A DNA stretch of 58,559 nucleotides, from the IMG/VR virus record IMGVR_UViG_3300030095_002502, positions 1-58,559 of that record; one strand, 5' to 3'. The notes under the pieces are model-generated. The model was not told the origin of the DNA. It did no database searches and worked only from the letters and a program-made list of their open reading frames with translations. How positions within the stretch are numbered: the first letter of the stretch is position 1; each line of letters begins with the position of its first letter. This DNA is from a virus (taxonomy: Duplodnaviria > Caudoviricetes). Shown in pieces: positions 787 to 58,559 of this stretch. The position numbers were made by a program, and so were the translations under genes.

Positions 787-807
787 GGTTTTGTAAAGGA
801 GATAGAA

Positions 808-1185: not shown

Positions 1186-1209
1186 CCGAGACACCTAGAC
1201 CGGTCGTCC
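1167..1209 (+). promoter_or_regulatory. programmed -1 ribosomal frameshift signal
   Basis: In-frame A AAT TTT heptamer at 1167-1173; stem GGATGACCG (1180-1188) / CGGTCGTCC (1201-1209); the -1 frame runs into ORF 1182. Confidence 0.8.
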
Positions 1210-1475: not shown

Positions 1476-1476
1476 A

Positions 1477-4400: not shown

Positions 4401-4674
4401 TGTTATGAATTTTGCTAATGGTGGTATGATTAAATCATATGCTAACGGAGGACCCGTTTTAGTAGGAGAAAGGGGTCCAGAACTGTTCGTTCCCCCTAGG
4501 ATGGGAGGACAAGTTTTAAATACTGACAGGACCCGAAATCTATTAAGAGGACAGACTGGCATGTCCAATGGTAACGGAATGATTAATACATTAATAGTAC
4601 AAAATTTAACAGCGGCTAATTCGACATCTAATAATAGTAAGATAGCCGTAGACACTTTTGCAGGAGTAGTATAA
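1477..4674 (+). CDS. tail tape measure protein
   Basis: 1065 aa helical, Ala-rich; TP901-type core (GLYQLASAG...AGRGLRQAL); C-terminal FANGG...VGERGPELFVP. Confidence 0.92.
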   Translation: MGVAGQIFAARVAIGLAVPSPKALSQTGEMLGNFSKKMYKKLNSQHLEAAQERSQATTQELQRANARVAEFQKRSQAELMQSAQRSLNRTNKMFSGQVAEGSRQINQMRTGLQRARPSVAPKLFANLSNDMKSAEKYQRIMKNFIQLTNTERQSVLKGVEITLEDAKARSVRALEMAKENAEMKEYAATQIEDAQKLEQTYEQMMILDSERSQEKRRLAEEEKNLLKEQKDARDKANSSLEIQEKLTNEMTEAQNKLHDAMHKAIYTMKEGFGQVLRDSISILTGFYYKLGETTSALQTFERELLNANSVFNLTRDELFKTSQTIVQFGQEFGLAMDNGAAGLYQLASAGLDANEAMAVLPHTLKLSMAVQGDHNTISKLTAQTLFGFGMEMDQAGLLTDKFAHAIQKSLIEYEDLTSAIKFALPFFTATGQSIDQLLGSLQVLTNRALEAGIAGRGLRQALAEFAEGAEDNATAFAKMGINILDANGEMLQLTEIARLFADAIGPETASNTELLTALIQDLNVRGATAFIHLVQNAEEFEDAVHATVNAGGELDEMVRIQNESIQAQMQILKNNVEAIFFMRDANADGTESLNEFHQGVLDVIASLRGLIVEELADGTYALTEFGRDIRKIAVQGVELFAGAVKSMVTIIRDFSKEGFFNISMLKAYFLPVSAVLKVVQMLGPNVLKLALWFKILTAVIPINTLLTLADTVATIANNTAKVASAAASTALAGAEAGRATATNAATAATMAQTSSFASLGGALRAFGRALLNPYVLLGAITAGIVLLIAKTRDLSAMWEGLRIGGMETLRMLKFAVTPLTELFGEWGDATERAMKSMGFADDRAAMIGIMQEIGAIVALIVYAVSESIARILRFTVELAGKTIDVVLGPNLSRLVWAVGQLQELDEKGAGNYTRDVVTADGASMVRNYQQVTGLSTYDMLAQQGGSGQFVADTAYGSGGDGYLGTKYSPGGAFDYVMNFANGGMIKSYANGGPVLVGERGPELFVPPRMGGQVLNTDRTRNLLRGQTGMSNGNGMINTLIVQNLTAANSTSNNSKIAVDTFAGVV

Positions 4675-4675
4675 G

Positions 4676-13400: not shown

Positions 13401-13572
13401 ACAAGAAACCACACCACGGGGTGGACCAAATGTTCCTATAACATATACTTTCCAAATGACAGTAACGGAGATATGTCTGATTGATAGGAACAACGAACTT
13501 ATGACAGACTTATTCCCTCTTGGTGGTGTATCCACAGAAAAAGGATATACCAGTGGAGGAAGGCTTGATTAG
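10420..13572 (+). CDS. large virion tail protein with N-terminal PKD-like domain
   Basis: YIDWDDGT...VEHTYTATGVY is PKD-like; ATG 10420 overlaps the previous stop (ATGA); C-terminus may be distal-tail-like. Confidence 0.65.
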   Translation: MSLRWNGASASNVTGAVYTTCTGNFVFTDDNVRAVYIDWDDGTDPQGNRSNKKEYANYQWQQITKPTGTLNVEHTYTATGVYAPVIQVLNSDGIVSSYYGSDTTNTDVSPYYDNSTHQTFEAIDGQATGIMNVENKSVLSGIDNSIFYKEGPKDLTFCVPPLLTSAQLTGTVGTIILEIEAVVAESVKSDVDLTVQVGATRSIRTLRVEHTINVATDQQVAIPITGGRVLEVKKVTYMNPKYTGSASTRPDNFKANNVFNYLKIFITTKGNDGLYYPVTYVSAGSPIKKADDARRYITMDFSQSRAKASNVLNSAYRYDVGKMWLNPAYQWNAITGSTAGDYEFFGDNTSGSNSNKIVAYTYGSTRPDGLGGQTFIGSAATGTSILFCDTSQTSSPRGYWDIQASISDRKFRTNQVLIDEFGAFQDQYHLVRNSMAPTSATTNTGSEISSLVDNKPFVYRITPPSDADWTKVDKDPDSATASYTQEVFQNTSGTRLLLSGMNDQDFEYFNGDNRWESGVADQNRNFEYLLMLWPKKTNKVFFNISSYASELIQDYMYLNNSQDDSVWSIAGVDYLVMEETGTKLQNAYWQSVPFNDTTAVTMNTRYTSGSNETYKDTTVGLAKSGYVDYDMPLDWAKTNFTNLCGGIFNPTVVPTAPVAGDFDITITGTVATGSADSTYGKSITLSSITAAAGNALSTLGTADDIGAFKYIAFVKTAAGAADTINRPIWVAGANGTNAANAGLTTLTMIYGENDASDYNIENLHGDSGVVFVIRRINAYDVLNGASMVDKGSSAILTPPVDYLSGSSFPHTYMLSGNSTTLTSFGTAFSAAWKTGEYYPLRIALSGASRNSNGNTYPEIFNVFDATESHVEIVKEVDDSAYNLNGTPITSDISISRTGTFYQAITRGGKVYISRTGDSIQNISFTSAALGTTNGNFNDVFSRDPAAGTVADNKGSMYWNLHNIRMLQSRAKRVYWDNQQKDGTWVRYFGVVTSLQETTPRGGPNVPITYTFQMTVTEICLIDRNNELMTDLFPLGGVSTEKGYTSGGRLD

Positions 13573-13574
13573 TT

Positions 13575-14630
13575 ATGTTGACTAAGAATCCTCGTATATT
13601 CATAGATGGTAGGCAAGTTGATTTTATTAAAGCTTCTTACTCTCTACCGGGTGTACTTTCTGCTGCATCATTGTCCTTTGATGTTCCTTTAGCAATTGCA
13701 GGAAACGAAAACTTATGGGATAAAGAAGTAACTCTTTATGTTGACAAGAGTGATAGTAAACCTATCTTTAGAGGATGGGTCAATAGAACTAAGAAAAATT
13801 TTAATGAAGTAGAGATATATGCTGAAGATGGATTTGGATATATGGTGAAGGGTGGTGATACTACTGTATCAAAGGTACAACTAGACGAACGGCAGAATCT
13901 AGATGGTTTGACGGTTGGTGCAGCTATTATAAAGTTATTAGAATTAACTAAGTTAGATACAAAAATTAAAACTGATTATATAGGTGATACTTCTCCTCGC
14001 ATTGGTTCTGTTCAAAAAAGGCCTATCAGAGGAACTCTATTAGTGTTAGATGTTATAAAACAGTTATTATCTAAACCCATCAATTTGTCTGACCAAGATT
14101 TACCTAGACCTAATATAGCTAAATTAATAGATGATGGTACATACTCTCAGTTAGTTATAGAGGTAGAGTCTGCGTTAGATTCATCAAACATATCTTATAC
14201 GTTTAACGAAAATAAAAACATAACTACTCTTAATGTTATAAATAGAAAGGTTCCTACTATTGTAGTAGTAACTGGTAAAAATGGTGTAAAGGGTACCTTC
14301 TCTCACGATGGAGCTATCAAAGCACTAGACCGTACATATTTAGAAGTTAGCAATAACAATTTAGAATCCCCAGCTGCATGTAAAGAATTTGGTGCACGAT
14401 TATTCCAAGCTAATCTAGAAAATAAATTTGAATATCAGATAGGTGTTACAGAAGGTTTCTATTTAGCCGAAAATCAAGTTGTTAGAATACAAACAGATGA
14501 TAAAGATTTTTCAGGTAATTATAGAATAGTAGGTAAAAATATAAGTTTCGGAGATACCACGACTATAGGTATAACTATTAATAGAAAGCCTCCTACTCTA
14601 GCTGAGTACATTAGTAGTAGAGATAATTAA
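13575..14630 (+). CDS. baseplate hub / tail tip protein
   Basis: 351 aa; IFRGWV...VEIYAEDG and GNYRIVGKNISF patterns typical of hub proteins; last gene of the tail module. Confidence 0.6.
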   Translation: MLTKNPRIFIDGRQVDFIKASYSLPGVLSAASLSFDVPLAIAGNENLWDKEVTLYVDKSDSKPIFRGWVNRTKKNFNEVEIYAEDGFGYMVKGGDTTVSKVQLDERQNLDGLTVGAAIIKLLELTKLDTKIKTDYIGDTSPRIGSVQKRPIRGTLLVLDVIKQLLSKPINLSDQDLPRPNIAKLIDDGTYSQLVIEVESALDSSNISYTFNENKNITTLNVINRKVPTIVVVTGKNGVKGTFSHDGAIKALDRTYLEVSNNNLESPAACKEFGARLFQANLENKFEYQIGVTEGFYLAENQVVRIQTDDKDFSGNYRIVGKNISFGDTTTIGITINRKPPTLAEYISSRDN

Positions 14631-23558: not shown

Positions 23559-23904
23559 CTTCTTTTTCTTCAGGTGTACTCCACCCAGCCTCTTCTCTAT
23601 ATGCAGCCGCTTGTTCAGGTGTCATTCTTTGAAAGAGTTTATCAATATTATTTGTCATTAACTCAGACACTTTGATACCATAGACATCACATAGTCTGGT
23701 GAGATACCATAGTACATCACCCATTTCATCTATGATTAAGTCTGTGTTATCTACGTGGTCTCTTATCTCTTTCTTAAATGCTCCACCAACTTCACCGGCT
23801 TCGTTCATTAAACCTATCATTAGGTATTCTTTTTCTCTACGCTTAGGATACTTCGCAGTTCTGCGAGTGAAATCCATATACGTAGCTTCTACTCCTGTTA
23901 CCAT
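23551..23904 (-). CDS. MazG-like NTP pyrophosphohydrolase
   Basis: GLMNEAGEV...KKEIRD...DEMGDVLWYL...NIDKLFQR. Confidence 0.88.
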   Translation of the reverse strand: MVTGVEATYMDFTRRTAKYPKRREKEYLMIGLMNEAGEVGGAFKKEIRDHVDNTDLIIDEMGDVLWYLTRLCDVYGIKVSELMTNNIDKLFQRMTPEQAAAYREEAGWSTPEEKEDE

Positions 23905-24227
23905 ATATTTAATTCCTCTGGTATTATTTTCTTTCTTATTATCCAATTCCTTTCCGCAGGTAAGTATCTATATACTAAATCTGCTTTTTCATTTTCTTGA
24001 ATAGTCCAAGGTTTAATAAGTATCAGGTCATTAACTCTGACCCACATACGTCTTTTAAACTTTCCTCCTATCCTTATCATACGTGTATGACCATCTGCAC
24101 ACATCGCTGTCATTCTTGACCCCCCTTGCATCTCCATTACAACTGCAAAAAGTTCACCTCGTTTAGGTAGTCTAGCTCTTTTTACTTGACCATCTTCTAA
24201 CAATTTCTTTGATTTCTTTTGAGTCAT
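23898..24227 (-). CDS. eif1a: archaeal translation initiation factor aIF-1A
   Basis: RLPKRGELFAVV...GG...CADGHTRMIRIGGKFKRRMWVRVNDLILIKPW...KADLVYRY. Confidence 0.92.
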   Translation of the reverse strand: MTQKKSKKLLEDGQVKRARLPKRGELFAVVMEMQGGSRMTAMCADGHTRMIRIGGKFKRRMWVRVNDLILIKPWTIQENEKADLVYRYLPAERNWIIRKKIIPEELNIW

Positions 24228-25746: not shown

Positions 25747-26436
25747 TTAAATCCATTTCTTTCTCGCTTTCCTTAGGTTTAAGACATTGTTTTCACAGAG
25801 TCTTACTGCATACATCTTTAAATCTTTCTCTGGCATACCCCCAAAGTTATCCTTCAATAGTAAGAATAAATCTATCAGAGACATGGGGTCTCCATCTTTA
25901 TCACTTAAGAAGGTTACAATCTCTTCGGGGACTACCCAAGTATACTCTTGTTCGTCTGAGTTAAATAAGGAGGGCCGGAACTTCTCTGCTATAAATGCGT
26001 CGTTATCAGTTCTTTCTAACATATAACCATTTACAGTTCTACCTGATGATGTTTTGATTTTTGTTCGCTTCATTTCAAATACTACGTCTGTAGGGTTTAC
26101 ATTTTCATCTATCAGTTCAGAGAATACTTTTTGAAAGTGTGTATGTGTAGCTAATGTAGCGGTGAGGTATGAGACTTCTGTCTTACCTCCTCCACTATAC
26201 TGTGACCCATCATGGTATATTCCATAAGTAAATTCATTTATCTTAGGTATATTTTGGTCACAGAATACACAATCACCTTCTCCAGCCCAACACTTGACTC
26301 TACGTCTGGAAGATTGGTTCCAATGTTTTATTCTATGGATTGGGGATATAAAGGCAAATTGCCCTAAAGCTGACATGGATTCTTCTAACCATACTCTTTG
26401 ACTTTTAGGGGATTGAATCCAATCGCTATATCTCAT
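25747..26436 (-). CDS. putative Zn-binding single-stranded DNA-binding protein
   Basis: H...KCWAGEGDCVFC pattern reminiscent of gp32-type SSBs; next to the helicase. Confidence 0.45.
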   Translation of the reverse strand: MRYSDWIQSPKSQRVWLEESMSALGQFAFISPIHRIKHWNQSSRRRVKCWAGEGDCVFCDQNIPKINEFTYGIYHDGSQYSGGGKTEVSYLTATLATHTHFQKVFSELIDENVNPTDVVFEMKRTKIKTSSGRTVNGYMLERTDNDAFIAEKFRPSLFNSDEQEYTWVVPEEIVTFLSDKDGDPMSLIDLFLLLKDNFGGMPEKDLKMYAVRLCENNVLNLRKARKKWI

Positions 26437-26819
26437 TTGATTTTTATATCTTTACCTTTATGTTCCTCAGCCTTCTGGATTTTTATATCTAGAACACCAT
26501 TGTTGAATTTCGCAGTCACTTTTTCTGGATTTAATTCAACCTTAAACTCTTCAGTAAAGCCATAGTCTCTACCACCATCTTCATTAGTGGCAGATACTAC
26601 AACCTTATGAGTGTCTACTGTTAGTTTAATATCTTTCTTATCTATACCGGGCATGTCAACAGTGATAGATATATCACCGTTTCTATCCTCCCAATCACCA
26701 ATACTCTTAGGTTTCTTTACGCTAGTCATTGGTCGATTAGATACAGACATTAAGTCCATCCATGCATCCATTAGTTCTGTCAATGCATCATCCATTGGAT
26801 TACGCTTGACCATGTTCAA
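26433..26819 (-). CDS. small heat shock protein (Hsp20)
   Basis: VDMPGIDKKDIKL...AKFNNGVLDIKI alpha-crystallin signature. Confidence 0.92.
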   Translation of the reverse strand: MNMVKRNPMDDALTELMDAWMDLMSVSNRPMTSVKKPKSIGDWEDRNGDISITVDMPGIDKKDIKLTVDTHKVVVSATNEDGGRDYGFTEEFKVELNPEKVTAKFNNGVLDIKIQKAEEHKGKDIKIK

Positions 26820-29716: not shown

Positions 29717-29971
29717 TTATTTAAACCACAAATAATATGCGATTACTCCTAAACATAATATGTTTCCTAATGTATATAAGGTTATCTCTGCCCATGATAT
29801 ATCTTTTTTCTTTACCTTACGTTTAACTGGTTTGGCTTGAACTATATAATGAGGAACTGAGTTCCAACATTCATCACATAGATAGGCTTTGAGGTGTGGT
29901 TCTTCACTCATATAATGGGTTCTACACTTATTGCAGTTATGCCATAAGGCTTTATAGTAAGTTGGCTGCAT
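29717..29971 (-). CDS. Zn-finger protein with C-terminal membrane anchor
   Basis: CNKC...CDEC and a hydrophobic tail. Confidence 0.6.
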   Translation of the reverse strand: MQPTYYKALWHNCNKCRTHYMSEEPHLKAYLCDECWNSVPHYIVQAKPVKRKVKKKDISWAEITLYTLGNILCLGVIAYYLWFK

Positions 29972-30554
29972 GTGCCACCTCTATGTAAGATTGATTAGCC
30001 CTAAGGATAGGACCACGTAATTCTTCAGGAATATAACTTAACCCCTCTACTCCTGTTTGTAAGTCTTCCATAAATAATTTAATGTATAAATTAAAATCGT
30101 TTGTTATGTAGTGGAATCCGTTAGCTACATCTTCATCATAATCTCTAACAAAGTTTATTATTTGGTATGCTCTACCTAAAGCTCTAGCGTGTATCTCTGC
30201 TCTTGGGTCACAACCTAGTATAGCAGCCATCATCATACCTACTGATTCAGCTGAACCTTTACAATACTCAAGCATAGAAGTCACAGTATGTTCTTTCTTA
30301 ACTAAGTCAGTATACATTGATAGGTGGAAGTCTGCTAACCATTCACCTTTGAACTGATACTTATCGCTTACTTCATAGAACTGCTCTATCACTTCTCTCC
30401 AATGTTTAAAATCTTTTAACTCAGCACCCTCTACCATCTCGTCACATACTCTAAGATATGCGTAGAGTTTGTATATATCTTCTTTTATATCTTTAGGCCA
30501 CTCAGACATAGCATCAAAAAACGTGGTGCTATATTTTTCCATTATCTCTTTCAT
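29952..30554 (-). CDS. phytoene/squalene synthase family protein (CrtB/HpnD-like)
   Basis: STTF, LYAYLRVCDEMVE, EYCKGSAESVG, ARALGRAYQIINFVRDYDED. Confidence 0.85.
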   Translation of the reverse strand: MKEIMEKYSTTFFDAMSEWPKDIKEDIYKLYAYLRVCDEMVEGAELKDFKHWREVIEQFYEVSDKYQFKGEWLADFHLSMYTDLVKKEHTVTSMLEYCKGSAESVGMMMAAILGCDPRAEIHARALGRAYQIINFVRDYDEDVANGFHYITNDFNLYIKLFMEDLQTGVEGLSYIPEELRGPILRANQSYIEVAHAANLL

Positions 30555-30712
30555 TCGCCTATACGCCCACCAAAATCTGCTACGTTAGATATCATCTTAC
30601 TACCACACTTAGGACAAGTCCATGTCCATGTAGAATTTTCACTACGTTCTATTTCTCTCTCTATGTCACAGTATGGACACATCTCTTGTTGTATTATTCT
30701 TTTCTGTTTCAT
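30551..30712 (-). CDS. Zn-ribbon micro-protein (53 aa)
   Basis: CPYC...WTCPKCG; ATGA overlaps at both ends. Confidence 0.6.
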   Translation of the reverse strand: MKQKRIIQQEMCPYCDIEREIERSENSTWTWTCPKCGSKMISNVADFGGRIGE

Positions 30713-37691: not shown

Positions 37692-37928
37692 TCATAAGTC
37701 TACCCCACTCAATACCTGTTCACGTATAGCTTCTGACTCTAACTTATATTCTTCGAAGGAAGACTTGTAAGGTAGTGGTGCTACGTCAAAGTATAGTGCA
37801 GTCTTTGCATTCTTACGTAGTCGGTGACTTGTGTCTACTGTTCGTCTGTTGTTTTGTTTTATGCTTGCCATAACAGCTGCTATCTGCTCTGCTGACATAC
37901 TCTCTATCAATGTTGTTATATCTTTCAT
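37692..37928 (-). CDS. hypothetical protein
   Basis: ORF track; GGAG upstream and a TATA box at about 37978. Confidence 0.7.
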   Translation of the reverse strand: MKDITTLIESMSAEQIAAVMASIKQNNRRTVDTSHRLRKNAKTALYFDVAPLPYKSSFEEYKLESEAIREQVLSGVDL

Positions 37929-38100
37929 GTTTTGACTCCGGCTTTACCGTTTCCGGTATTTAAGAGAAGGTTTCAAAGTATTTAAAGGTGCCGGTCGTTT
38001 TTGGGTGTTAAACATATAAACTCGTGCTTAGTTGTTTCTACCCCATTTTCCGCTCATCATCCGCAGAAATCGGGGGAGCTTTAATATAGAACCCCCTTCC

Positions 38101-38410
38101 TATATATTATACTATATTAAGAATATTGCTCTATTATGCAATAATAAAGCATTGCTCTATTACTAAATAAAATAGATTAATAGAGCCAATTGCTGAATAG
38201 AGCATATAATATTAAGCTAACATATGCTTACACTACTTTTTTCTTGTTCACATATAACAAAAAAAAGCTCTATATCGAACTTAAACTATCGGTTTTAGTT
38301 TATAGGCTCTATTAGTCATGACCAATTACTCACTTATAGGGTGCGACGTAGAGCAAATTTTCTCTTCTGCGCCTACCGACAGACATAGGGCCCGATTGAG
38401 CTCTATTTCT
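38101..38410. repeat. AT-rich cluster of eight GCTCTA/TAGAGC hexamers (candidate origin)
   Basis: Copies at 38128, 38154, 38181(rc), 38198(rc), 38267, 38306, 38349(rc), 38400 in a divergent intergenic region. Confidence 0.6.
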
Positions 38411-38493
38411 CACGTGCGGATAACGACGGACGGCTTTATCGAGCTTGGTTTTAATATAGTATTTATACCTTTCGGTTTATATCGCTCGTCATG

Positions 38494-38596
38494 ATATCAC
38501 TGCGGGTTTTTCTAAAAAGTGCAAGCGGAACTTATATGCCCCTATATATACGTCCCCGAGCTTTATATACTCTTTTGACCCCAACCTTTATATACT
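38494..38596 (+). promoter_or_regulatory. multi-TATA promoter cassette, copy A
   Basis: GCGG..TATA..CCTATATA..CGAGCTTTATATAC..AACCTTTATATAC aligns with the reverse complement of copies B-D. Confidence 0.7.
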
Positions 38597-38631
38597 TCGA
38601 AACCATGTGTAATATAGAGGAAAGTGATAAG

Positions 38632-38982
38632 ATGCCATCAACAACAGAAACGCAGAAAAGCACAGCTATGGATTATTTATCGGCCCCAAGAAATGAAGGC
38701 CTTGTAAAAAATCTGATGACTTTAATTGGATTTACAGCTCCAGAAGGCGGTCGTCTTCCGGCAGGTGTAAAGTATGACACAATTATAGCATTAAATGATG
38801 TCGTAGGTAACAATGCAGAAATGCAAAGTATGCTCGCTACTCGTGTATTTGAATTACAAGCTCAAAGACGAACGGCTAACCCAAAAGTTAGTGCAACTCC
38901 TGAGTCTGTAATAAATGCAGTCAAAGCTGGAAAAATATCTTTAGATGAGTTAAAAGCTCAGATAAAATTATTAGAAGGCTAA
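38632..38982 (+). CDS. hypothetical protein, sole + strand gene of the early region
   Basis: MPSTTETQK..., 116 aa; GAGG upstream and cassette A promoter. Confidence 0.7.
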   Translation: MPSTTETQKSTAMDYLSAPRNEGLVKNLMTLIGFTAPEGGRLPAGVKYDTIIALNDVVGNNAEMQSMLATRVFELQAQRRTANPKVSATPESVINAVKAGKISLDELKAQIKLLEG

Positions 38983-39000
38983 AAGCGTTCAATGCTCAAA

Positions 39001-39211
39001 GGGTGACGAGAGAATAAGAGGTTCACCCATTTATGTTTAAAGAGATAGCTTCTCTTTATCGTTAGTGGCCGAATAAGTCCTACCCAACGGACTAAGGCAC
39101 ACGAACCTGCTCCAACGGACAAGTGTCTGAGGAGGTGGTAAGTGGTAAGCAATTACAAATTAACTACTTAGGTAGTTGGGAGTTGCTTTGGGGGTTAACC
39201 AAGAATCCCCC
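39001..39211 (+). ncRNA. candidate structured RNA (hairpin chain)
   Basis: At least five consecutive hairpins with no ORF. Confidence 0.45.
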
Positions 39212-39239
39212 CTAACACCTTTTATGATTATATGCATAT

Positions 39240-39520
39240 ATAGGTCGTGAGTTATCAGTCGCCACTTAAATTAAAGAACTCGAGTTATCACTCTTCGAAA
39301 CTAAAAGAGTATCCGTCACTCCATTGGAATCGATTGTTTAGGTATATATTTAAAGTTAAACTAACGCCTATTCTCAGACCTCCGAATGCGTAAACGATGT
39401 ATCCAATTATTCCCTCAACAGTAGACTAACCCTTCTTTTACAATTTATCCGATGGCTAACTAATAACGTCTTTCTCACGTGAAGTGTAAAACTTTTGTTT
39501 GGAAGCACGACCGACTTATG
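39240..39520 (-). ncRNA. candidate ~280 nt ncRNA with its own promoter
   Basis: TATA at 39544-39551 on - with no start codon or ORF behind it; terminal stem GGTCGTG/CACGACC. Confidence 0.55.
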
Positions 39521-39635
39521 ATTAAGCCTAGTGGAGAGCAACCTATATAAAGGTATAAGACTCTCAACTATTTTTTTCGCTCGTAGTGAATCACTGTGGT
39601 GGGGGCCACTAGCCCCCGAGGTAAAACAGTTCAGC

Positions 39636-39872
39636 TTATTTTATTTGAACTCCATAGGATTTAATATCAGAGATATAAGTGTCTCCGTATTCGAATTCTC
39701 CGTAAGTCATATCTGACTTAACCGCACAATACCATCTGGCATATGGATTCTTAGCCTCGTTCTCAGGAGCTTGGTATTTCTTTAATACTCTCCACTCAAA
39801 CCCGGAAGGGCCACTCCAAACCTCGTATGGATTGTCTAACTTTCTCGTTTTACCGCATTCGTTTTTAGTCAT
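39636..39872 (-). CDS. hypothetical phage early protein
   Basis: ORF track; TATA about 22 bp upstream; GGGGGC/GCCCCC hairpin downstream. Confidence 0.75.
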   Translation of the reverse strand: MTKNECGKTRKLDNPYEVWSGPSGFEWRVLKKYQAPENEAKNPYARWYCAVKSDMTYGEFEYGDTYISDIKSYGVQIK

Positions 39873-40015
39873 AATATACCAATAGCAGGGTTATATTTAA
39901 AGGTTCGCACCCTGATATCACCCCGGCCGCGGGGCCTACTCGTATTTTTTAAGTAGGCGTTTAAGGAGAGCCTCGTTTATATAGGCGTCCCCTAGCTTAT
40001 GCCACATATCAGTTT

Positions 40016-40174
40016 TCATTCAATCCTCGAATGTGGGTCTGCGTCTTCTTCGTCGATGAAATAATATAAACAGGTTTCGATTGTTTCCAAATTATAACTA
40101 TTGGATTTGATACCTGTAGTTTCTACCTCATGCCTTAGAGTATTAAGACGTGCTATTAATTCACTTCTTCGCAT
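40016..40174 (-). CDS. hypothetical protein (52 aa)
   Basis: Likely start MRRSEL after GAGGAG, 1 bp from the upstream stop. Confidence 0.55.
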   Translation of the reverse strand: MRRSELIARLNTLRHEVETTGIKSNSYNLETIETCLYYFIDEEDADPHSRIE

Positions 40175-40175
40175 T

Positions 40176-40364
40176 CTACCACTCCTCGTATTCGTAATCT
40201 TCTGATTCTTTATCCATAAGCGTATGAAGTTTTTCAGCCATACCACAGGTGCAATTATCATAAACCCAATCGCAACCCTCCTTATGCTCGAACTCTTGAC
40301 CGGTAGCACCACTTATTTCATATCCGAAATCATGACCGGCATACTCATAATTGTAATCCGGCAT
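40176..40364 (-). CDS. hypothetical acidic protein
   Basis: MPDYNYEYAGH...; TAATG-coupled. Confidence 0.6.
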   Translation of the reverse strand: MPDYNYEYAGHDFGYEISGATGQEFEHKEGCDWVYDNCTCGMAEKLHTLMDKESEDYEYEEW

Positions 40365-40516
40365 TAGTCCCACCCCTTGAGTTTAGCGTATAAGGCTTCA
40401 TATTCTGGGCCTCGCTTCTTTGCACCTTCTGGCGTCATACTTGAAAAAGCTTTAACTCTTTTTCGACCTTGCACTTTTCGAACCCTGTTAGGGTTTCTTC
40501 TTATGTTTTTCCACAT
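40364..40516 (-). CDS. hypothetical basic protein (50 aa)
   Basis: MWKNIRRNPNRVRKVQGRKR...; GAGGT Shine-Dalgarno. Confidence 0.55.
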   Translation of the reverse strand: MWKNIRRNPNRVRKVQGRKRVKAFSSMTPEGAKKRGPEYEALYAKLKGWD

Positions 40517-40529
40517 TTTTATTTACCTC

Positions 40530-40652
40530 TTAAATTCCTGTTTCCTCAAAACAGTCTTCGCATACTTCTAAGCCTCGGCTTATATGTTTAGCGTCTCTGA
40601 ATAATCTTTTATCGTCTGCGCATATTTCGCAGAAGGGATAGTCGTAAACCAT
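40530..40652 (-). CDS. Zn-finger micro-protein (40 aa)
   Basis: CEIC...CEDC. Confidence 0.55.
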   Translation of the reverse strand: MVYDYPFCEICADDKRLFRDAKHISRGLEVCEDCFEETGI

Positions 40653-40820
40653 TTATTCGTCCCTCATTAAGTCACCGCTTACGGCATCCTCTGAATATCC
40701 GAGTTCGATTAATTGGTCTTCGTCCTCTGAATATTGCATTTGTGCTTTTGCTTTAATTAAAGCTAAATCTATTTCTTCTATCATTCGATTAAGAATGTTC
40801 ATTGTTGTTTTATGATTCAT
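40653..40820 (-). CDS. hypothetical protein (55 aa)
   Basis: MNHKTTMNILNRMIEEID...; first gene behind cassette B, GAGGT Shine-Dalgarno. Confidence 0.6.
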   Translation of the reverse strand: MNHKTTMNILNRMIEEIDLALIKAKAQMQYSEDEDQLIELGYSEDAVSGDLMRDE

Positions 40821-40821
40821 A

Positions 40822-40950
40822 TTTTACCTCTATCCTAACTCTAACAAGAGAGTATATAAAGGTTTGTCTCTAAAAGGTATATAAAGGCCGAGGAGCCTTA
40901 TATAGGGTAATATAGAACCCGAACGCGTTTTTTGAAAAAACCGCACTGAT
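40822..40950 (-). promoter_or_regulatory. multi-TATA promoter cassette, copy B
   Basis: 40822-40921 matches 41618-41717 at 94 of 100 positions by hand alignment; includes the SD. Confidence 0.8.
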
Positions 40951-41040
40951 TCTATTAAATCACCCTGAATCTAGGGGTCAAAGGGTGTAATACTATTTTA
41001 CTATTTTCATCTTCCTTTGACCGGTGAAGCTTTAAACTAT

Positions 41041-41193
41041 TTACAGTTCAAGACCGCAAGCCTCATAAAAACGGGCACGGTCAAAATTGCTATTTTCATT
41101 ATAACAAAATTGGGCCATGTCCCTTATTAGGACGCCGTCGGCTTTATGTTCTTTTAATATTTGGGCTAATGCTATAAAATGTTTACGAGTCAT
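41041..41193 (-). CDS. small phage protein (50 aa)
   Basis: MTRKHFIALAQIL...NSNFDRARFYEACGL, a recurrent phage micro-protein pattern. Confidence 0.7.
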   Translation of the reverse strand: MTRKHFIALAQILKEHKADGVLIRDMAQFCYNENSNFDRARFYEACGLEL

Positions 41194-41271
41194 TATTTAG
41201 CCCTCCCTATATTCTATATATTTTTTAGCAAAATATTTACTATGCCATTTTATTGGTTTAATGTCACTCAT

Positions 41272-41616
41272 TTAAATACCTCCAATTGGAAAACCTTGTT
41301 CGTAGCCGGTTAAACCGTCGTATGGCATTTGTCCGGTATAGTAGTTCATAGGTATATGGACTTCATCCACTGATGGATATTTTACAAATCTAGCACCTAC
41401 GCTTACAAGTAAGTCCCAAATTTCTTGGTCATCCAATGAACCTTTTTTGGTTCCGAAGCCGTGCAAATTAGCCCAGCCTACCGTATGGCAGTATAAACTA
41501 TTTGGTCCTTCCATTAAAGAACCTGCTACTTCCACATAAAAGTTGTGGATACTCATTAGTCGACCGTTCCAGTCAACGAAGCCAATTTTGTTAGTTGTAT
41601 ATGTTGTTTTACTCAT
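41272..41616 (-). CDS. hypothetical protein
   Basis: ORF track; first gene behind cassette C. Confidence 0.7.
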   Translation of the reverse strand: MSKTTYTTNKIGFVDWNGRLMSIHNFYVEVAGSLMEGPNSLYCHTVGWANLHGFGTKKGSLDDQEIWDLLVSVGARFVKYPSVDEVHIPMNYYTGQMPYDGLTGYEQGFPIGGI

Positions 41617-41617
41617 C

Positions 41618-41730
41618 TTTTACCTCTATCCTAACTCTAACGACAGAGTATATAAAGCTTTGTCCCTAAAAGGTATATAAAGGTCGAGGACCCTTATATA
41701 GGGTAATATAGAACCCGCTCGTGTTTTTTA
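41618..41730 (-). promoter_or_regulatory. multi-TATA promoter cassette, copy C
   Basis: Near-identical direct repeat of copy B. Confidence 0.8.
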
Positions 41731-41807
41731 GGCCCCCGGGGGTAGTTAGAGGGCCCGGGGGGTATCGTGGTGATATCACCCTGAATGTTAAGTATAAGGT
41801 TTTGGGG

Positions 41808-42038
41808 TCGTAGGTCGTGAGAACCCACTCGAGCTAACCACGGGCTTCCAACCGCGTCAGTCATGAGCTGTCGAATCAATAGCAACCTAGACACGCGTGT
41901 CTCTTGCTACTATTGTCCTTTTGCCCTTCGCCATTCTTGTCAAGCAACCCCATTATTTTTATTCGGGTATTAGCCGAACCTAAATAAGGTGTATCCCTTC
42001 CTCAAGGGAAATCTTACTTCATCCATTTAGACCTACGA
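41808..42038 (-). ncRNA. candidate structured RNA behind a 27-codon ORF
   Basis: Closing stem TCGTAGGTC/GACCTACGA enclosing four hairpins; G-U pairs favour the - strand. Confidence 0.5.
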
Positions 42039-42097
42039 GTAGACGTTGGTAAACGCCCAATCTTAAGCCATAACTTCTGAACCTGTGTTAGTGTCAT
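42014..42097 (-). CDS. 27 aa basic micro-ORF
   Basis: MTLTQVQKLWLKIGRLPTSTRRSKWMK*; GAGGT Shine-Dalgarno from cassette D. Confidence 0.45.
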   Translation of the reverse strand: MTLTQVQKLWLKIGRLPTSTRRSKWMK

Positions 42098-42102
42098 TAT
42101 TC

Positions 42103-42205
42103 TTTTACCTCTATTTTAACTGTAGCGACAGAGTATATAAGGGTTTGGTCCATTTTAGTATATAAGGCACGAGGGAGTATATATACTGCGTTATAGTTTC
42201 CGCTC
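42103..42205 (-). promoter_or_regulatory. multi-TATA promoter cassette, copy D (diverged)
   Basis: TTTTACCTCTAT..CGACAGAGTATATAA..GTATATAAGG..CGAGG..TATATA..CCGCTC. Confidence 0.7.
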
Positions 42206-42446
42206 ACCTTTTTCTGTTTTATTTTTCACACACCCCCCGTCTAAAAAAGAGGCACCCCCTCCCTTTCTTCTTATCGTCTAGGGGTTTAAACAAATCGAGC
42301 TATTTTTTGAAAGTGCTTAATTAATATCTATATATAGGTAAAACATTATGGAGCCTACTATCTCTATATATCTCTTAAGAGACTATAACAGTGTTAACAG
42401 AAAGTTTTATATACTGTGATTGCTTACTTAGAAACAGTGAAAAAAA

Positions 42447-42977
42447 ATGTCAAGAAAAACTCAGAATTCAATCAAGTGGACTTGTAATGAAATCCGCGAC
42501 TTGCTATTGAGCAAGAACAAGGCTTATGGTGATTCAGCCATAGAGCCAGACAATATTTTTAGTAAGCTCGATAATGCACAAGCAATCTGTGCACGTATCG
42601 ACGACAAGCTCAGTCGTATTAAGAACAGTGGGCTCGATGATGCAACTGAAGACACGCTCGATGATTTGATAGGATATCTTATCCTGTTAAAAATATCTAG
42701 AAGCGAGGCGGCAGCTAATGTTACAATTATGACAAGCTGTAATTGTGAACTTGGGTGCACTATGTGTAGTAAGGATTGTGAATGCGTTTGCAACATAGAG
42801 CCTGAAGAAGGATACATTCCTCCATGGGCTCACGAAGTTAAGGTATTCACGAATGTGCAACCCGATTTGAACAAGATGCGTCAAGAGAAAGAATACTCTC
42901 AACCCTTAGAACCTAAAAGAGTTGTAAGGACAGGACCTCGTAAAGAGACTATTGTTATCAGTGAAGCTGAAGATTAA
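42447..42977 (+). CDS. nucleotide-modification-associated domain 1 (Nmad1/DUF1599-like) protein
   Basis: KNKAYGDS...RIDDKLSRI...EDTLDDLIGYLIL, followed by a Cys cluster. Confidence 0.75.
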   Translation: MSRKTQNSIKWTCNEIRDLLLSKNKAYGDSAIEPDNIFSKLDNAQAICARIDDKLSRIKNSGLDDATEDTLDDLIGYLILLKISRSEAAANVTIMTSCNCELGCTMCSKDCECVCNIEPEEGYIPPWAHEVKVFTNVQPDLNKMRQEKEYSQPLEPKRVVRTGPRKETIVISEAED

Positions 42978-44044
42978 TGGAGCTTAATACAATGATTAAA
43001 TTAAAAGATTATATTGAACAACCTTTAGTTGATAAAGCCTTAGAAGAAGGAGGCAGAATAGAGCCTCTTATAATACCAAACGAAGAATCAGGCGGACTAG
43101 GATTATGCAACCCGTCAATTCTTAAGATGAAAGCCAAGAGTTCATACTTAGTTAACGTTAGAAACGTATCCTATTACTTACACCACTGTGTAGGTGAACA
43201 GAAATATCAGACACCATGGGGACCCCTAAACTATGTAAGACCTGATAATGACCCTTACCTAAGAACAGATAACTTCATTTGTGACTTCAGTTTAAGAAAT
43301 AACAAACTAACCAACCCGCGAAAGTTAGATACTAGCAAATTCCCTAAACAACCAGAGTGGGACTTTGTAGGATTAGAAGATGGACGTCTAGTAGAATGGG
43401 ATGGTAAGATGTATATGACTGGAGTAAGAAGGTATGCGCCTGACGGTAAAGGTAGGATGGTACTCTCTGAAATAGATATAAGCAGAAAGAAAGTTAAAGA
43501 AGTAAAGAGATATGTCATAGAACCACCGAAAGGGGAAGAAGACGCTTACTGTGAGAAAAACTGGATGCCTATATTAGATAGTCCGTTTCACTACGTGAAA
43601 TGGTCAAACCCTTTACAAGTCGTAAAGGTAGATATAACATCAAGCCAACCTTCCAAACTTAAAGAAACCTATGCATGCGAGTCTACTACAGTATTCCAAA
43701 GTGATGAAACATTAGACTTACAACTAGACCCTCGTGGTGGTTCACAAGTTATACCATGGAAAGATAACACTTATCTAGCTATAGTACACGAATGTGACTA
43801 CTGGCACAATGAAAAGAATGATAGAGATTCACATTACTATCATAGGTTTATGCAATGGGATAAAGATTGGAATCTAATAAACCACTCTCAACCATTTAAG
43901 TTTATGGATGGTAGAATAGAATTCTGTTGTGGTATGGCTATGCACCCAGATAATAATGACGTTTATGTTACATTTGGTTTCCAAGATAACTCAGCCTACT
44001 TAGCTCATATACCACTTGCTGTTATTGAAGACATATGGCTTTGA
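42977..44044 (+). CDS. five-bladed beta-propeller glycosidase/phosphorylase-like protein (GH130/GH43 clan)
   Basis: CNPSI, GLEDGRL, EKNWMP, RGGSQ, IEFCCG, FGFQD. Confidence 0.75.
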   Translation: MELNTMIKLKDYIEQPLVDKALEEGGRIEPLIIPNEESGGLGLCNPSILKMKAKSSYLVNVRNVSYYLHHCVGEQKYQTPWGPLNYVRPDNDPYLRTDNFICDFSLRNNKLTNPRKLDTSKFPKQPEWDFVGLEDGRLVEWDGKMYMTGVRRYAPDGKGRMVLSEIDISRKKVKEVKRYVIEPPKGEEDAYCEKNWMPILDSPFHYVKWSNPLQVVKVDITSSQPSKLKETYACESTTVFQSDETLDLQLDPRGGSQVIPWKDNTYLAIVHECDYWHNEKNDRDSHYYHRFMQWDKDWNLINHSQPFKFMDGRIEFCCGMAMHPDNNDVYVTFGFQDNSAYLAHIPLAVIEDIWL

Positions 44045-57073: not shown

Positions 57074-58559
57074 ATGGGAAAGAACGAACTAATTAATGGA
57101 AACCCCGCACAGGGGACTACCAAACCATGGGTTCTCTCTCAAGTCACATCTGGTGCACAGGGAGGAACAGGTGCACAAGGTGGTGACGGACCACAAGGTA
57201 CAGCTGGTACAACAGCATCTCAAGGTACAACTGGTGCACAAGGAACTACAGGAACTCAAGGTACAAATGGTACTACGGGTTCTCAAGGTACTACTGGTAA
57301 CACAGGTACACAAGGTAATACTGGTTCACAAGGTGCGCAAGGAAATATAGGACCTACAGGAGCACAAGGTAATACTGGTTCACAAGGTACTACAGGAACT
57401 ACTGGTTCTCAAGGTACAACAGGTAATACAGGTTCACAAGGAACTACAGGTAATACAGGAAGTCAAGGTGCTATAGGAGCACAGGGTACAACAGGTAATA
57501 CAGGAAGCCAAGGTGCTATAGGTGGTCAAGGTATCCAAGGACTTCAAGGTCTTCAAGGTATACAAGGACTTCAAGGAACACAAGGTACACAAGGTAATCA
57601 AGGAATACAAGGTAATCAAGGAATACAAGGTATTTTAGGACTTTTCGGTGGTAACAGTATAGAATTTAATTATAGTAGTTTTGATATTACCGCTGGTTCT
57701 CCGGGACAAACTAATTTTGGATTTAATATTGCATTGCCCGGTGGTGGAGGTGTACCTAATTACGGTTTAATTTCTAAAGTAGGAATATCTAATTTTGATA
57801 TTAATACTACTGATGTTAGTGATTGGGTGGATTCACTTGATGATGGTACTGGTTCAGTACGAGGACATTTAAGAGTTTTTGAAACAACTGATTCTACTAC
57901 ATGGGTTACTTTTAATATCACTGGAGCTAATGCAGCAGGAGGTGCAGGCACAACAGCGTATGAAGAGCTTCAAGTACAATATGTAGATAGTAATAGTTAT
58001 TTTTCTAATGGTGATGATTGTGTAATTACTTTTGTACAAGCTGGTGCACAAGGAACTGCTGGTAGTACTGGAGGTGGTGGAAGTCAAGGAACTACAGGTA
58101 ATACAGGAAGTCAAGGTGCTATAGGAGCACAGGGTACAACAGGTAATACAGGTTCACAGGGTACAGTAGGTAATACAGGAAGTCAAGGTGCAATAGGAGC
58201 ACAAGGAACAGACGGTGCTACAGGTTCACAAGGAACAGATGGTGCTACTGGTGGAGTTGGTGCACAAGGTATCCAAGGTAATCAAGGAATACAAGGACTT
58301 CAAGGAATACAAGGAATACAAGGTATTAAAGGAGACACAGGAGATACTGGTACTCAAGGTAATACTGGTGCTACTGGAGGCGTAGGAAGTCAAGGAGCTA
58401 CGGGTACTACAGGTAATACAGGTTCACAGGGTACAGTAGGTAATACAGGAAGTCAAGGTGCAATAGGAGCACAAGGAACAGACGGTGCTACAGGTTCACA
58501 AGGAACAGATGGTACTGTAGGTGCACAAGGTATTCAAGGTCTTCAAGGAATACAAGGTA
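57074..58559 (+). CDS. collagen-like fibre protein (runs off window end; absent from ORF track)
   Basis: [14 protein letters not shown]... followed by Gly-X-Y repeats (GAQ, GSQ, GNT, GIQ) interrupted by a globular domain at about 57640-58040; no stop seen. Confidence 0.9.

Follow-up and report, generated by a model that had tools for sequence, protein, structure and literature searches.

Promoter-early stem-loops (PeSLs) of T4-type phages are composite cassettes that join a terminator to a strong early promoter (PMC2839356, PMC4122927). For archaeal viruses, the accessible parts of the literature describe three related arrangements. In one arm of the HGTV-1 genome, most ORFs are preceded by a TATA-like box with an inverted repeat, a motif that its authors liken to PeSLs and propose to regulate transcription and shuffle genes (PMC3950731). 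The intergenic repeats of halovirus HF2 are proven promoters (class I, 58 bp; class II, 29 bp, three AT motifs; PMC8707807), and SIRV2 and other crenarchaeal viruses place virus-specific consensus regulatory sequences before early and anti-defence genes (PMC11065993). The multi-TATA cassette reported here is a variant on these earlier promoter cassettes of archaeal viruses and T4-like phages; the remark in an earlier sequence-only reading that it knew of no such description for archaeal viruses does not hold, given the HGTV-1, HF2, and SIRV2-type precedents.

Copies, anatomy, and conservation of the cassettes

The stretch analyzed (the window) is an entire 58.6-kb viral genome, that of a marine tailed virus whose host is most likely an archaeon. 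Its repeats probably serve putative early genes as composite expression cassettes, a reading drawn from sequence comparison. Four full copies of ∼125 nt each (A–D) and one partial copy (E) were detected.

38502..38631 (+), cassette A; nhmmer E 7.8e-32 (four-copy HMM) and 1.1e-28 (52-copy HMM)
40815..40945 (−), cassette B; E 2.1e-34 (four-copy HMM)
41610..41739 (−), cassette C; E 9.1e-36 (four-copy HMM)
42096..42226 (−), cassette D; E 1.5e-30 (four-copy HMM)
37943..38021 (−), partial cassette E, proximal half only; E 5.1e-6 (52-copy HMM, model positions 52–121)

The four-copy HMM matched cassettes A–D at E 9e-36 to 1.5e-30, and the 52-copy HMM, composed of copies from relatives, matched them at E 5e-31 to 8e-28. 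After the cassettes, the best remaining match of the latter model in the 58.6-kb genome had an E of 7e-4, and its opposite-strand self-matches arose from the palindrome within the cassette. By this model, the cassettes are confined to 37.9–42.2 kb of the window. Repeat detection returned a direct family of 128 nt (40806–40933, 41602–41729 at 89%, and 42087–42214 at 64%), with 38505–38596 as an inverted repeat of each member (71–73%). Repeat detection and HMMs thus bore out the earlier count of four clear copies and one degenerate copy, the latter being E, as well as the identity of B and C at 94 of 100 positions (40822–40921 versus 41618–41717). With at most one mismatch, TATATAAAGG occurred 32 times in the genome as compared to 11.0 ± 3.1 times in shuffled sequence, and none of 100 shuffles reached 32.

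Each cassette runs from an A/T tract through a GAGCGG-like motif, a weak box 1, boxes 2 and 3, a BRE/TATA core (box 4), and a GAGG leader to an ATG.

38507, 38514, 38523, 38532 (+), cassette A 5′ parts: T5 run, A5 run, AAGCGG, and box 1
38543, 38564, 38589 (+), cassette A TATATA cores: boxes 2, 3, and 4
38617, 38632 (+), cassette A 3′ parts: GAGG and ATG
40940–40928, 40924 (−), cassette B 5′ parts: T6/A6 tract and GTTCGG
40904, 40883, 40858, 40830, 40820 (−), cassette B: three TATATA cores, GAGG, and ATG
41729, 41720 (−), cassette C 5′ parts: A6 run and GAGCGG
41700, 41679, 41654, 41626, 41616 (−), cassette C: three TATATA cores, GAGG, and ATG
42205, 42185, 42164, 42139, 42111, 42097 (−), cassette D: GAGCGG, three TATATA cores, GAGG, and ATG

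The similar box spacing noted earlier is 21 and 25 bp between TATATA cores in all four window copies, and the (G)AGCGG-like motif, which had been placed about 70 bp upstream of the last box, begins 66 bp upstream of its core (AAGCGG in A, GTTCGG in B, GAGCGG in C and D). A leader with GAGG had been ascribed to B–D, where it is present; its restriction to those copies was incorrect, as A carries the GAGGA form and all four window copies have the motif. The leader extends 9–14 nt from GAGG, the A-rich first few codons also lie inside the cassette, and every window cassette ends in an ATG-initiated ORF. Boxes 2 and 3 form an imperfect palindrome with half-site GTATATAAGG and ∼9 bp between its arms, centered ∼60 bp upstream of the presumed start site. 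Box 4 is a BRE/TATA core such as this genome typically has, followed by an initiation region of TAATATAG type.

Fifty-two distinct copies recovered from related contigs, the basis of all counts out of 52, exhibited rigid spacing, with no indels between boxes 2, 3, and 4 in any copy. All 52 copies have TATATA as box 2, and 51 of the 52 have TTATAT as box 3, while box 4 is less fixed (TATATA in 30, TAAATA in 11, TATATG in 9, other in 2). In every copy, 6–9 of 10 positions agree between the box 2 10-mer and the reverse-complemented box 3. Box 2 takes the form TATATATA in 19 copies and TATATAAG in 24, the reverse complement of the latter being the box 3 form CTTATATA; of the spacers between the two boxes, 37 are C-rich and 15 have the complementary, G-rich form. 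GAGCGG is exact in 30/52. Upstream, a run of at least five T was present in 24/52 copies versus 6.7% of random windows, and of at least five A in 32/52 versus 13.5%; a clear oligo-T run is limited to about half of the copies. An exact pattern scan across IMG/VR gave 66 matches at 57 loci on 29 contigs, which the HMM sorted into 53 true cassettes and four chance loci; therefore, 25 contigs, all of this virus's clade, carry the design. In two 100%-complete relatives, the cassette matches fall within ∼2.5 kb.

As far as the published descriptions available go, the T4 PeSLs share with these cassettes transcriptionally self-contained units and many repeats in one hyperplastic region, heading small genes of unknown function. 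The promoter is of archaeal BRE/TATA type in place of sigma-70, and the oligo-T/A tract stands where PeSLs have a GC stem-loop. The present cassette is about twice the length of a PeSL, adds the palindrome of two TATATA boxes and the GAGCGG motif, and, unlike a PeSL, runs through the ribosome-binding site and first codons. HGTV-1, like this virus, is archaeal and tailed, with a repeated TATA motif and inverted repeat before many small ORFs; its host is a haloarchaeon, its motif was compared by description only, and in the present cassettes the inverted repeat is made of the TATA-like boxes themselves. The HF2 repeats, conserved within their genus, are likewise intergenic repeats of an archaeal tailed virus, and those of class II, in which C residues part several AT motifs, can drive transcription in reverse as well. 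The present cassettes exceed the HF2 repeats in length and head short units, whereas transcripts headed by the HF2 repeats reach 35 kb; HF2 positions are strongly conserved, whereas number and cargo vary here; and HF2 promoter activity and start sites come from measurements, whereas those of the present cassettes are predicted from sequence. With the SIRV2-type sequences the cassettes share a 75–100-bp virus-specific conserved sequence around a strong BRE/TATA core, common to several small, fast-evolving genes per genome; inverted repeats in some of those sequences are presumed binding sites of a viral repressor. SIRV2-type sequences, from rod-shaped or filamentous Sulfolobales viruses and with early expression established by transcriptomics, mostly have one TATA core each, as compared to multiple TATA-like boxes and structured RNAs in the cargo of a marine tailed virus.

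Small genes and RNAs headed by the cassettes

In the window and ten related loci, an ATG ORF of 27–118 aa directly follows each cassette examined, with the exception of a 10-aa call (L089, 3933–4019). Cassette E heads a conserved 78-aa gene (37692–37928). These observations support the earlier view of promoter-type cassettes heading separate small gene or RNA units.

38632..38982 (+), A unit: 116-aa protein of family F0, an ORF with homologues in seven related loci
39038..39221 (+), A unit: manA RNA (RF01745), 57.5 bits versus a gathering score of 55.2, model 1–192
40016..40820 (−), B unit: five micro-ORFs of 55, 40, 50, 62, and 81 aa
41041..41616 (−), C unit: ORFs of 114 aa (F12), 24 aa, and 50 aa (F8)
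42014..42097 (−), D unit: conserved basic 27-aa micro-ORF
41804..41966 (−), D unit: structured RNA with a conserved fold (D element)

The F0 protein had no Pfam or PHROG match. Two of the five B-unit micro-ORFs are Cys-rich, and most are equipped with a separate GAGG-type ribosome-binding motif. All five compared genomes with F12 have it as the first gene behind a cassette, as do L081 and L025; the 27-aa micro-ORF is kept directly 3′ of a cassette in L081, L082, L098, and L087. RNAalifold on eight D-element sequences gave 36 pairs, 19 with compensatory changes, and 96.8% of cells paired, a value equaled by 0 of 500 shuffles; slid controls gave at most seven pairs. No Rfam match to the element was found at E ≤ 1.

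Contigs from RNA libraries of two studies cover only 39255–39456, 40043–40290, and 41943–42091; they give neither strand nor ends and may contain DNA. In related viruses, two RNA-library contigs of low depth extend across entire cassettes, which would fit read-through or upstream starts, not box 4 alone.

Plasticity and recombination of the region

Relatives carry three to seven cassettes per genome and differ in cargo and cargo order. Families F4, F8, F11, and F13 vary in unit and order, the B-unit families F19, F4, and F11 stand in different contexts, manA homologues occur in other cassette units, and manA and the D element lie in different units and strands. The motif search in relatives suggested by the sequence-only reading thus found varying cargo with upstream boxes kept (52/52 and 51/52); invariant cargo combined with unconserved upstream boxes, which that reading had named as counting against it, is therefore not the pattern observed.

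Two orthologous cassettes (L082_8645 and L092_3865) differ along their length at 0/64, 11/40, and 0/23 positions, and the divergent 40-nt tract differs at only 2/40 from another cassette in the same genome. Read from these alignments, this is gene conversion between cassette copies, with tract ends that vary within the cassette. In the window, B resembles C at 90%, and neither exceeds 73% similarity to any other copy; D is 98% identical to its orthologous copy in L001/L081, and L081 has a different cassette type at the C position despite 83% identical flanks. In a DNA run from another study, depth spikes on the cassettes, and contigs of the same run part exactly at cassette ends (38621 joined to 41621; loose ends at 38623 and 41625). 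Three close genome pairs show 18 major synteny breakpoints, of which, by our reading, only two fall 25 bp or less from the edge of a cassette. Gene shuffling also occurred inside units, so the cassettes do not serve as the principal sites of recombination. The 796-bp B–C excision circle that the earlier reading suggested looking for did not appear, as neither a deletion nor a circle joint between B and C was found in the contigs compared.

The analogy to PeSLs drawn in that reading is partly supported and holds at the level of function: the composite layout, the single plastic region, and the conversion tracts speak for it; the breakpoints, the shuffling inside units, and the missing B–C joint speak against it. 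In the available accounts, T4 PeSLs also recombine mutually and their cargo differs between close relatives; unlike them, this virus has most breakpoints away from the cassettes and no mini-circles in the contigs compared. Each cassette offers ∼125 bp of common sequence, and therefore the copies recombine with one another, by analogy in the manner proposed for T4-type PeSLs and the HGTV-1 and HF2 promoter repeats. Such exchange may homogenize the copies and allow self-sufficient units to be gained, lost, or re-headed.

Promoter signals, alternative readings, and host

The genome-wide intergenic motif consists of an A-rich BRE with TTTATATA or TTTAAATA. From its TATA 3′ end to three start codons are 21, 22, and 22 nt, which fits leaderless mRNAs; to the cassette ATGs the distance is 32–37 nt. 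Box 4 would be the working promoter, with transcripts starting ∼22–25 nt after it, and the cassette units would be early genes. The oligo-T/oligo-A tract may stop archaeal RNA polymerase arriving from either side. The upstream palindrome may be an orientation-independent control element; tentatively, and with confidence a little short of an even balance, it could be the site for a putative dimeric regulator or TBP pair that boosts or co-ordinates box 4.

Several other explanations of the extra boxes were considered. Three independent tandem promoters (P2, P3, and P4) firing toward the gene to maximize output, as at rRNA and phage early promoters, are somewhat unlikely. Box 3 is forward-oriented in every copy, the TATATATA box 2 (19/52) can be read as a TATA box in the forward direction too, every presumed start falls within the following box given the 21- and 25-bp spacing, and the related viruses' RNA-library contigs span the upstream boxes. 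However, boxes 2 and 3 lack a BRE-like A-rich flank, the TATATAAG box 2 (24/52) is the reverse complement of box 3 form CTTATATA, and a spacer found in either orientation is more in keeping with a symmetric site than with a directional promoter; P2 and P3 transcripts would also carry long TATA-containing leaders, of which the sole sign is those low-depth contigs, possibly DNA. That same absence of the A-rich BRE seen at box 4 and the genome's promoters weakens the improbable notion of a TBP/TFB sponge, raised in the earlier reading, in which the extra boxes soak up or pre-load host TBP/TFB and replicating viral DNA starves host promoters. Boxes 2 and 3 do share the TTATATAC core with the presumed promoters of this genome, at three strong boxes per cassette and three to seven cassettes per genome, but a dozen or two sites are few for titration, TAAATA occurs in 0/52 copies at boxes 2 and 3 versus 11/52 at the TBP-site box 4, and palindromic pairing at a fixed distance from box 4 suggests a local role. 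Dedicated, integron-like site-specific recombination, as opposed to passive homology, is highly improbable: the GAGCGG motif and palindrome are conserved beyond promoter needs and the palindrome spacer occurs in both orientations, yet Pfam and PHROGs revealed no integrase or recombinase in the window except a RecU-like resolvase and a PD-(D/E)XK nuclease, conversion tracts end variably inside the cassette, and most breakpoints lie elsewhere.

A bacterial host, with the boxes as −10-like or phage-specific promoter elements, is very unlikely. Weak hints toward it are the RecU-like resolvase, the manA RNA, earlier known in the literature available from bacteria (gammaproteobacteria) and cyanophages (PMC2864571), and a single genome-contig match, a TerL relative on a 2.7-kb contig binned in a gammaproteobacterial Ruthturnera MAG. 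Against this, sigma-70-like sites numbered 17 versus 12.1 ± 2.7 in shuffles, with none above 9/12 and, in the window, no −35/−10 pair in register with box 4; bacterial-type terminators numbered 4 versus 4.1 in shuffles, and Pfam/PHROG scans showed no viral RNA polymerase or sigma factor. The BRE/TATA consensus and 21–22-nt leaderless spacing fit archaea, and an archaeal host, as read earlier, is supported by this TATA-to-ATG spacing and a viral aIF1A. The latter is full-length and scores 108.7 bits against the NF003084 cut-off of 91 (NCBIfam); its closest solved structures are archaeal aIF1A, and for the viral Hsp20 an archaeal model scores best.

Anatomy of the repeated cassette

Four full copies and one partial copy of a repeat of about 125 nt, in which a GAGCGG-like motif and four TATA-like boxes (boxes 1–4) precede a GAGG leader and an ATG, are all confined to 37.9–42.2 kb of the window:

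38502–38631 (+), cassette A
40815–40945 (−), cassette B
41610–41739 (−), cassette C
42096–42226 (−), cassette D
37943–38021 (−), partial cassette E

Repeat detection returned a direct family (40806–40933, 41602–41729 at 89% and 42087–42214 at 64%), each member of which is an inverted repeat of 38505–38596 (71–73%). A profile built from the four window copies recovered A–D across the genome at E values of 9e-36 to 1.5e-30. A profile of 52 copies from relatives recovered the same four (5e-31 to 8e-28) and a partial copy at 38021–37943 (−) that comprises the proximal half only (E 5e-6), the next best match anywhere in the genome having an E value of 7e-4. Spacing between successive TATATA cores is 21 and 25 bp in all four full copies, and the GAGCGG-like motif starts 66 bp upstream of the last core in each. 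Repeat search, profile search and fixed spacing thus bear out the repeated multi-TATA cassettes described in the sequence-only reading; its degenerate copy at about 37970–38055 is the partial copy, and its count of 94 of 100 identical positions between B and C was reproduced. The GAGG leader that it assigned to B–D is present there but is not limited to them, since A carries one too.

Related IMG/VR loci were fetched with the 355-aa gene (42977–44044) and TerL as anchors. Full cassette matches above 30 bits were present in 10 of the 56 related loci of one fetched set, several of the other 46 holding too little upstream DNA; in a profile search of the fetched loci, none was found in relatives at 41–48% identity. 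The 71 matches whose flanks are complete represent 52 distinct sequences. Read along transcription, these carry an A run that often has a T run before it, then GAGCGG, box 1, box 2, a 9-bp spacer and box 3; next come an A-rich BRE and box 4, a leader with a TAATATAGAGG-type sequence at its end, and an ATG with A-rich first codons. GAGCGG is exact in 30 of the 52 copies and box 1 reads CTATA in 20; T runs of at least five occur in 24 copies and A runs of at least five in 32, as compared to 6.7% and 13.5% of random windows, respectively.

Box 2 is TATATA in every copy and box 3 is TTATAT in 51 of 52, and none of the 52 has an indel between boxes 2, 3 and 4, while box 4, the presumed working core, varies (TATATA in 30, TAAATA in 11, TATATG in 9 and other sequences in 2). 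In every copy, 6–9 of the 10 positions of the box 2 10-mer agree with the reverse complement of box 3. The spacer takes a C-rich form in 37 copies and the complementary G-rich form in 15, and the profile matches the opposite strand at precisely the box 2–spacer–box 3 part. An A-rich flank, present at box 4 and at the other promoters of the genome, is absent at boxes 2 and 3. Judged by sequence conservation, boxes 2 and 3 form a symmetric and apparently orientation-independent element that is constrained more tightly than the core promoter. Because they are invariant and palindromic, take the spacer in either orientation and lack the A-rich flank, they are probably not spare TATA boxes.

Cargo and structured RNAs of the cassette units

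In the window and in 10 related loci, every cassette examined leads immediately into an ATG ORF of 27–118 aa, the sole exception being a 10-aa call (L089, 3933–4019). The units headed by cassettes A–D carry the following cargo, including two structured RNAs:

Unit A, a conserved 116-aa protein, then the manA RNA
Unit B, five micro-ORFs
Unit C, ORFs of 114, 24 and 50 aa
Unit D, a conserved basic 27-aa ORF, then a structured RNA (the D element)
39038–39221 (+), manA RNA (RF01745), 57.5 bits against a gathering score of 55.2, model positions 1–192
41804–41966 (−), D element, 36 predicted pairs, 19 with compensatory changes

At the D element 96.8% of cells are paired, a value reached by none of 500 shuffles, slid controls gave at most 7 such pairs, and Rfam returned nothing there at E ≤ 1. 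The manA RNA scores above the gathering score across the full model, the copy in the related locus L082 reaching 55.4 bits. Homologues lie in eight related loci (L072, L094, L096, L097, L098, L092, L025 and L082), some of which share a contig or are near-identical, and belong there to other cassette units, on either strand. In relatives, manA and the D element occur in one unit, with the D element directly after manA, on either strand; in the window, manA is in unit A and the D element in unit D.

Cargo proteins matched no Pfam family, and a PHROGs search with 14 small proteins gave just one match, to a family of unknown function. The layout of the units suggests that the cargo comprises early genes. 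Contigs from the RNA libraries of two studies match 39255–39456, 40043–40290 and 41943–42091 at 99–100% identity, placing parts of three units in RNA libraries, although such contigs carry no strand, end or level information and may include DNA carry-over; next to none of the queried words were present in RNA runs X21–X24. The segment 39255–39456, matched at 100% identity in both independent studies, is lineage-specific and contains no convincing ORF. Around it (39250–39460), no excess folding was detected on either strand (z 0.43 and 0.80), nor any homologue among the fetched relatives.

The partial cassette heads a 78-aa helical protein (37692–37928, −) that is encoded in all four cassette-bearing viral records and was not found in the one related record without cassettes; the distribution of the 116-aa protein shows no such match to cassette presence. 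As the comparison spans five records only, the 78-aa protein is a weak lead to a cassette-binding factor. Between the partial cassette and cassette A, an AT-rich stretch (38100–38410) holds at least seven direct or inverted copies of a GCTCTAT-type word and is conserved in six related loci; it is a candidate replication origin or cluster of regulator sites.

Distribution and exchange of cassettes

Scanning all IMG/VR contigs for the exact three-box pattern gave 66 matches in 57 loci on 29 contigs. By profile, 53 of these loci hold a true cassette (52 of them near full length), and the remaining four are chance occurrences, each on a single-match contig, leaving 25 contigs that carry the design. 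BLAST matches all fall within about 2.5 kb in each of two relatives that are 100% complete (72.5 and 70.4 kb). Another relative, 94% complete and 68% identical, yielded no cassette by BLAST; it has a different, shorter repeat that combines a single TATA box with a GAGCGG-type motif, the form recorded for L083 among the more distant relatives. No repeat of 40 nt or longer was found in the distant relative L129, and in L115, L102 and L108 long repeats occur only inside coding sequence. At least 17 DNA runs, drawn from several studies, contained the virus or close kin. Taken together, the cassette is a real, sharply defined and clade-wide feature.

Cassette number differs among relatives: four and one partial copy in the window, five in L082, L098 and L087, seven in L093 and L089, and three in L096 and L094. 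The ORF family F12 directly follows a cassette in all five compared genomes and is itself followed by F8 in the window, F11/F14 in L082 and F13–F8 in L096, and the family F4 is fourth in its unit in the window, second in L082 and L087, and first in L093 and L089. Thus, cargo between repeats varies among relatives in cassette number, gene order and RNA placement. The sequence-only reading had staked its proposal against invariant cargo combined with unconserved upstream boxes; since cargo varies and the upstream boxes are invariant in 51–52 of 52 copies, the proposal stands on this point.

Exchange between cassettes is visible in several comparisons. L082 and L098 are 92–95% identical across 8.4 kb, and one orthologous pair of their cassettes has no differences in 64 upstream and 23 downstream positions but 11 in the 40 around box 4; in the L098-lineage copy, this divergent 40-nt tract differs at just 2 of 40 positions from another cassette of its own genome, which marks it as a gene-conversion tract. 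Window copies B and C are 90% alike and at most 73% like any copy elsewhere. In the closest relative (L081), flanks of 83% identity enclose another type of cassette at the position of C. Depth in a DNA run from another study rises from about 50 to 800–1280 on the cassettes and manA, and contigs of the same run part exactly at the leader/ATG edge (a joint at 38621/41621, with loose ends at 38623 and 41625). C and D are also joined within the cassette by one contig, a weak joint because the contig side is only 22 nt. Among the joints listed for matching assembled contigs there was no 796-bp B–C deletion, back-joint or circle joint, a result that does not bear on absence because such contigs drop rare forms. 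Of 18 major collinearity breakpoints counted here across three close pairs, only 2 fall 25 bp or less from a cassette edge, which is roughly the chance level, and genes change neighbors within units too. Cassettes, we conclude, recombine with one another and can give a unit a new head; the evidence does not establish them as the chief driver of gene shuffling.

Host type, proposed mechanism and known counterparts

The 58,559 bp in one contig represent the whole genome of a tailed virus, with genes for a tape measure, class II ribonucleotide reductase, family B DNA polymerase, ATP-dependent ligase, CobT/CobS-like proteins, large terminase, portal and major capsid protein. Genes lie on the plus strand at 1–14630, on the minus strand at 14627–37928 and 39636–42100, and on the plus strand from 42447 on, so that the cassette region sits in the divergent zone separating the two arms. 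An A-rich stretch followed by TTTATATA or TTTAAATA recurs in intergenic regions genome-wide, and the TATA-box 3′ end is 21, 22 and 22 nt from the start codon at three genes (39872−, 47488+ and 52948+), a spacing that fits the geometry of archaeal leaderless mRNAs; at the cassettes the distance to the ATG is 32–37 nt. Sigma-70-like sites show no clear enrichment (17 in the genome versus 12.1 ± 2.7 in shuffles, none above 9/12), and the cassette has a BRE/TATA core instead of a −35/−10 pair, none being found in register with it. Bacterial-type terminators are at chance level genome-wide, and none of four terminator-like sites is at a cassette. The virus also encodes an initiation factor whose best solved (PDB) relatives are archaeal:

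23898–24227 (−), full-length aIF1A, 109 aa (NCBIfam NF003084, 108.7 bits against a cut-off of 91)

The BRE/TATA motif, the leaderless spacing, the absence of sigma-70 and terminator enrichment and the viral aIF1A lead us to regard the virus as very probably archaeal. A bacterial host would fit the record of manA so far, which according to PMC2864571 comes from marine metagenomes, gammaproteobacteria and cyanophages, as well as the RecU-like resolvase of the virus and a 2.7-kb contig binned in a gammaproteobacterial (Ruthturnera) MAG. That contig, the single match in genome contigs, was judged uninformative as a host clue. Major capsid protein homologues numbered 932 at E ≤ 1e-10, a nucleotide search of the cassette region against GenBank phages gave no match, and a tRNA scan found no tRNA.

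In the proposed mechanism, box 4 would be the working promoter, with transcription starting at a conserved TAATATAG-type sequence to give a 9–14-nt leader that begins at GAGG. The T/A tract would be a two-way archaeal terminator or insulator, because runs of at least five T or A exceed those of random windows, and the box 2/3 palindrome would be an upstream control element. Of the readings of this palindrome, a regulator or paired-TBP site is the favored one, at slightly less than even odds. That the boxes are instead tandem promoters is rather unlikely, given the missing A-rich flank at boxes 2 and 3, and the suggestion of the sequence-only reading that they titrate TBP/TFB is highly improbable. 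No viral regulator was found, two fold attempts being uninformative (the 116-aa family F0 at an unusable pLDDT of 51.6; family F2, all-helical at pLDDT 71.9, with no Foldseek PDB match at E ≤ 0.001). As a long shot, the palindromic pair of invariant TATATA boxes, whose distance to the core promoter is fixed, could be a dedicated viral take-over device that docks two host TBP(/TFB) or a virus-specific factor in either orientation, with recombination moving units between viruses. If so, each cassette would be a pre-loaded, insulated and portable expression unit, inter-cassette recombination would carry whole units, structured RNAs such as manA included, between viruses, and this could explain one RNA family common to viruses of archaea and of bacteria.

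PeSLs, to which the cassettes had been likened, are cassettes of a sigma-70 promoter and a stem-loop terminator in the hyperplastic regions of T4-type phages, and they recombine and form mini-circles (PMC2839356 and PMC4122927). The likeness extends to function and to confinement to a plastic region of small ORFs (37.9–42.2 kb here, about 2.5 kb in the complete relatives). It does not extend to the strong sigma-70-like early promoter, replaced here by a BRE/TATA core, or to the adjacent GC-rich terminating stem-loop, in place of which there are T/A runs that may be its archaeal equivalent; as these defining features fail, the cassette is not a PeSL member. On changes bounded by the elements, as in PeSLs, the observations point both ways: only 2 of 18 breakpoints lie at cassette edges, yet there are conversion tracts inside cassettes, a cassette swap within conserved flanks and contigs diverging at cassette ends.

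The statement that nothing of the kind had been described in archaeal viruses did not hold. The archaeal tailed virus HGTV-1 is reported to have PeSL-like TATA-plus-inverted-repeat motifs (PMC3950731); intergenic repeats of HF2 are promoters by experiment, with measured activity and a TSS about 26 nt after the TATA start, one class having three AT motifs and reverse activity (PMC8707807); and in SIRV2-like viruses, virus-specific 75–100-bp sequences around a strong BRE/TATA head early or anti-defence genes (PMC11065993). The present repeat matches in kind the consensus regulatory sequence of the last source: a virus-specific sequence around a BRE/TATA core that several genes of one genome share, here as four full copies plus a partial one (E 1e-28 to 1e-36). 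A word search of open-access text found no description of a multi-TATA cassette at invariant spacing whose upstream pair forms a palindrome and exceeds the core in conservation.

Promoter-cassette architecture with concerted evolution, as in T4-like phages and haloviruses, thus extends to marine archaeal tailed viruses. To our knowledge, next to nothing has been established about how viruses of the abundant, uncultured marine archaea control transcription. The cassette offers a family-wide regulatory element, a core promoter with a more conserved upstream palindrome, that can be synthesized and tested in archaeal in vitro transcription, and it points to the genes, micro-proteins and two structured RNAs among them, that probably make up the early or host-takeover set of a widespread ocean virus clade. 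The presence of manA within a cassette unit widens the known range of this RNA family to an archaeal-type virus, one with archaeal-type promoters and a viral aIF1A, and together with a previously undescribed structured RNA it adds to the significance of the cassette, which would gain further should the palindrome turn out to be a site of TBP docking or of virus-specific control.

Elsewhere in the genome, a 53-aa zinc-ribbon protein (30551–30712, −) weakly resembles the TFIIB zinc ribbon, its PF08271 score of 21.7 bits falling below the cut-off of 29. Auxiliary genes include the following:

26433–26819 (−), Hsp20, best model an archaeal Hsp20
29952–30554 (−), squalene/phytoene-synthase-like protein, 200 aa
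44035–45627 (+), radical-SAM/SPASM protein fused to FkbM methyltransferase

ORFs at 3–125 (+) and 57074–58558 (+) run past the two ends of the record, across which a collagen-like tail-fibre gene may continue; this would mean a circular or permuted assembly.
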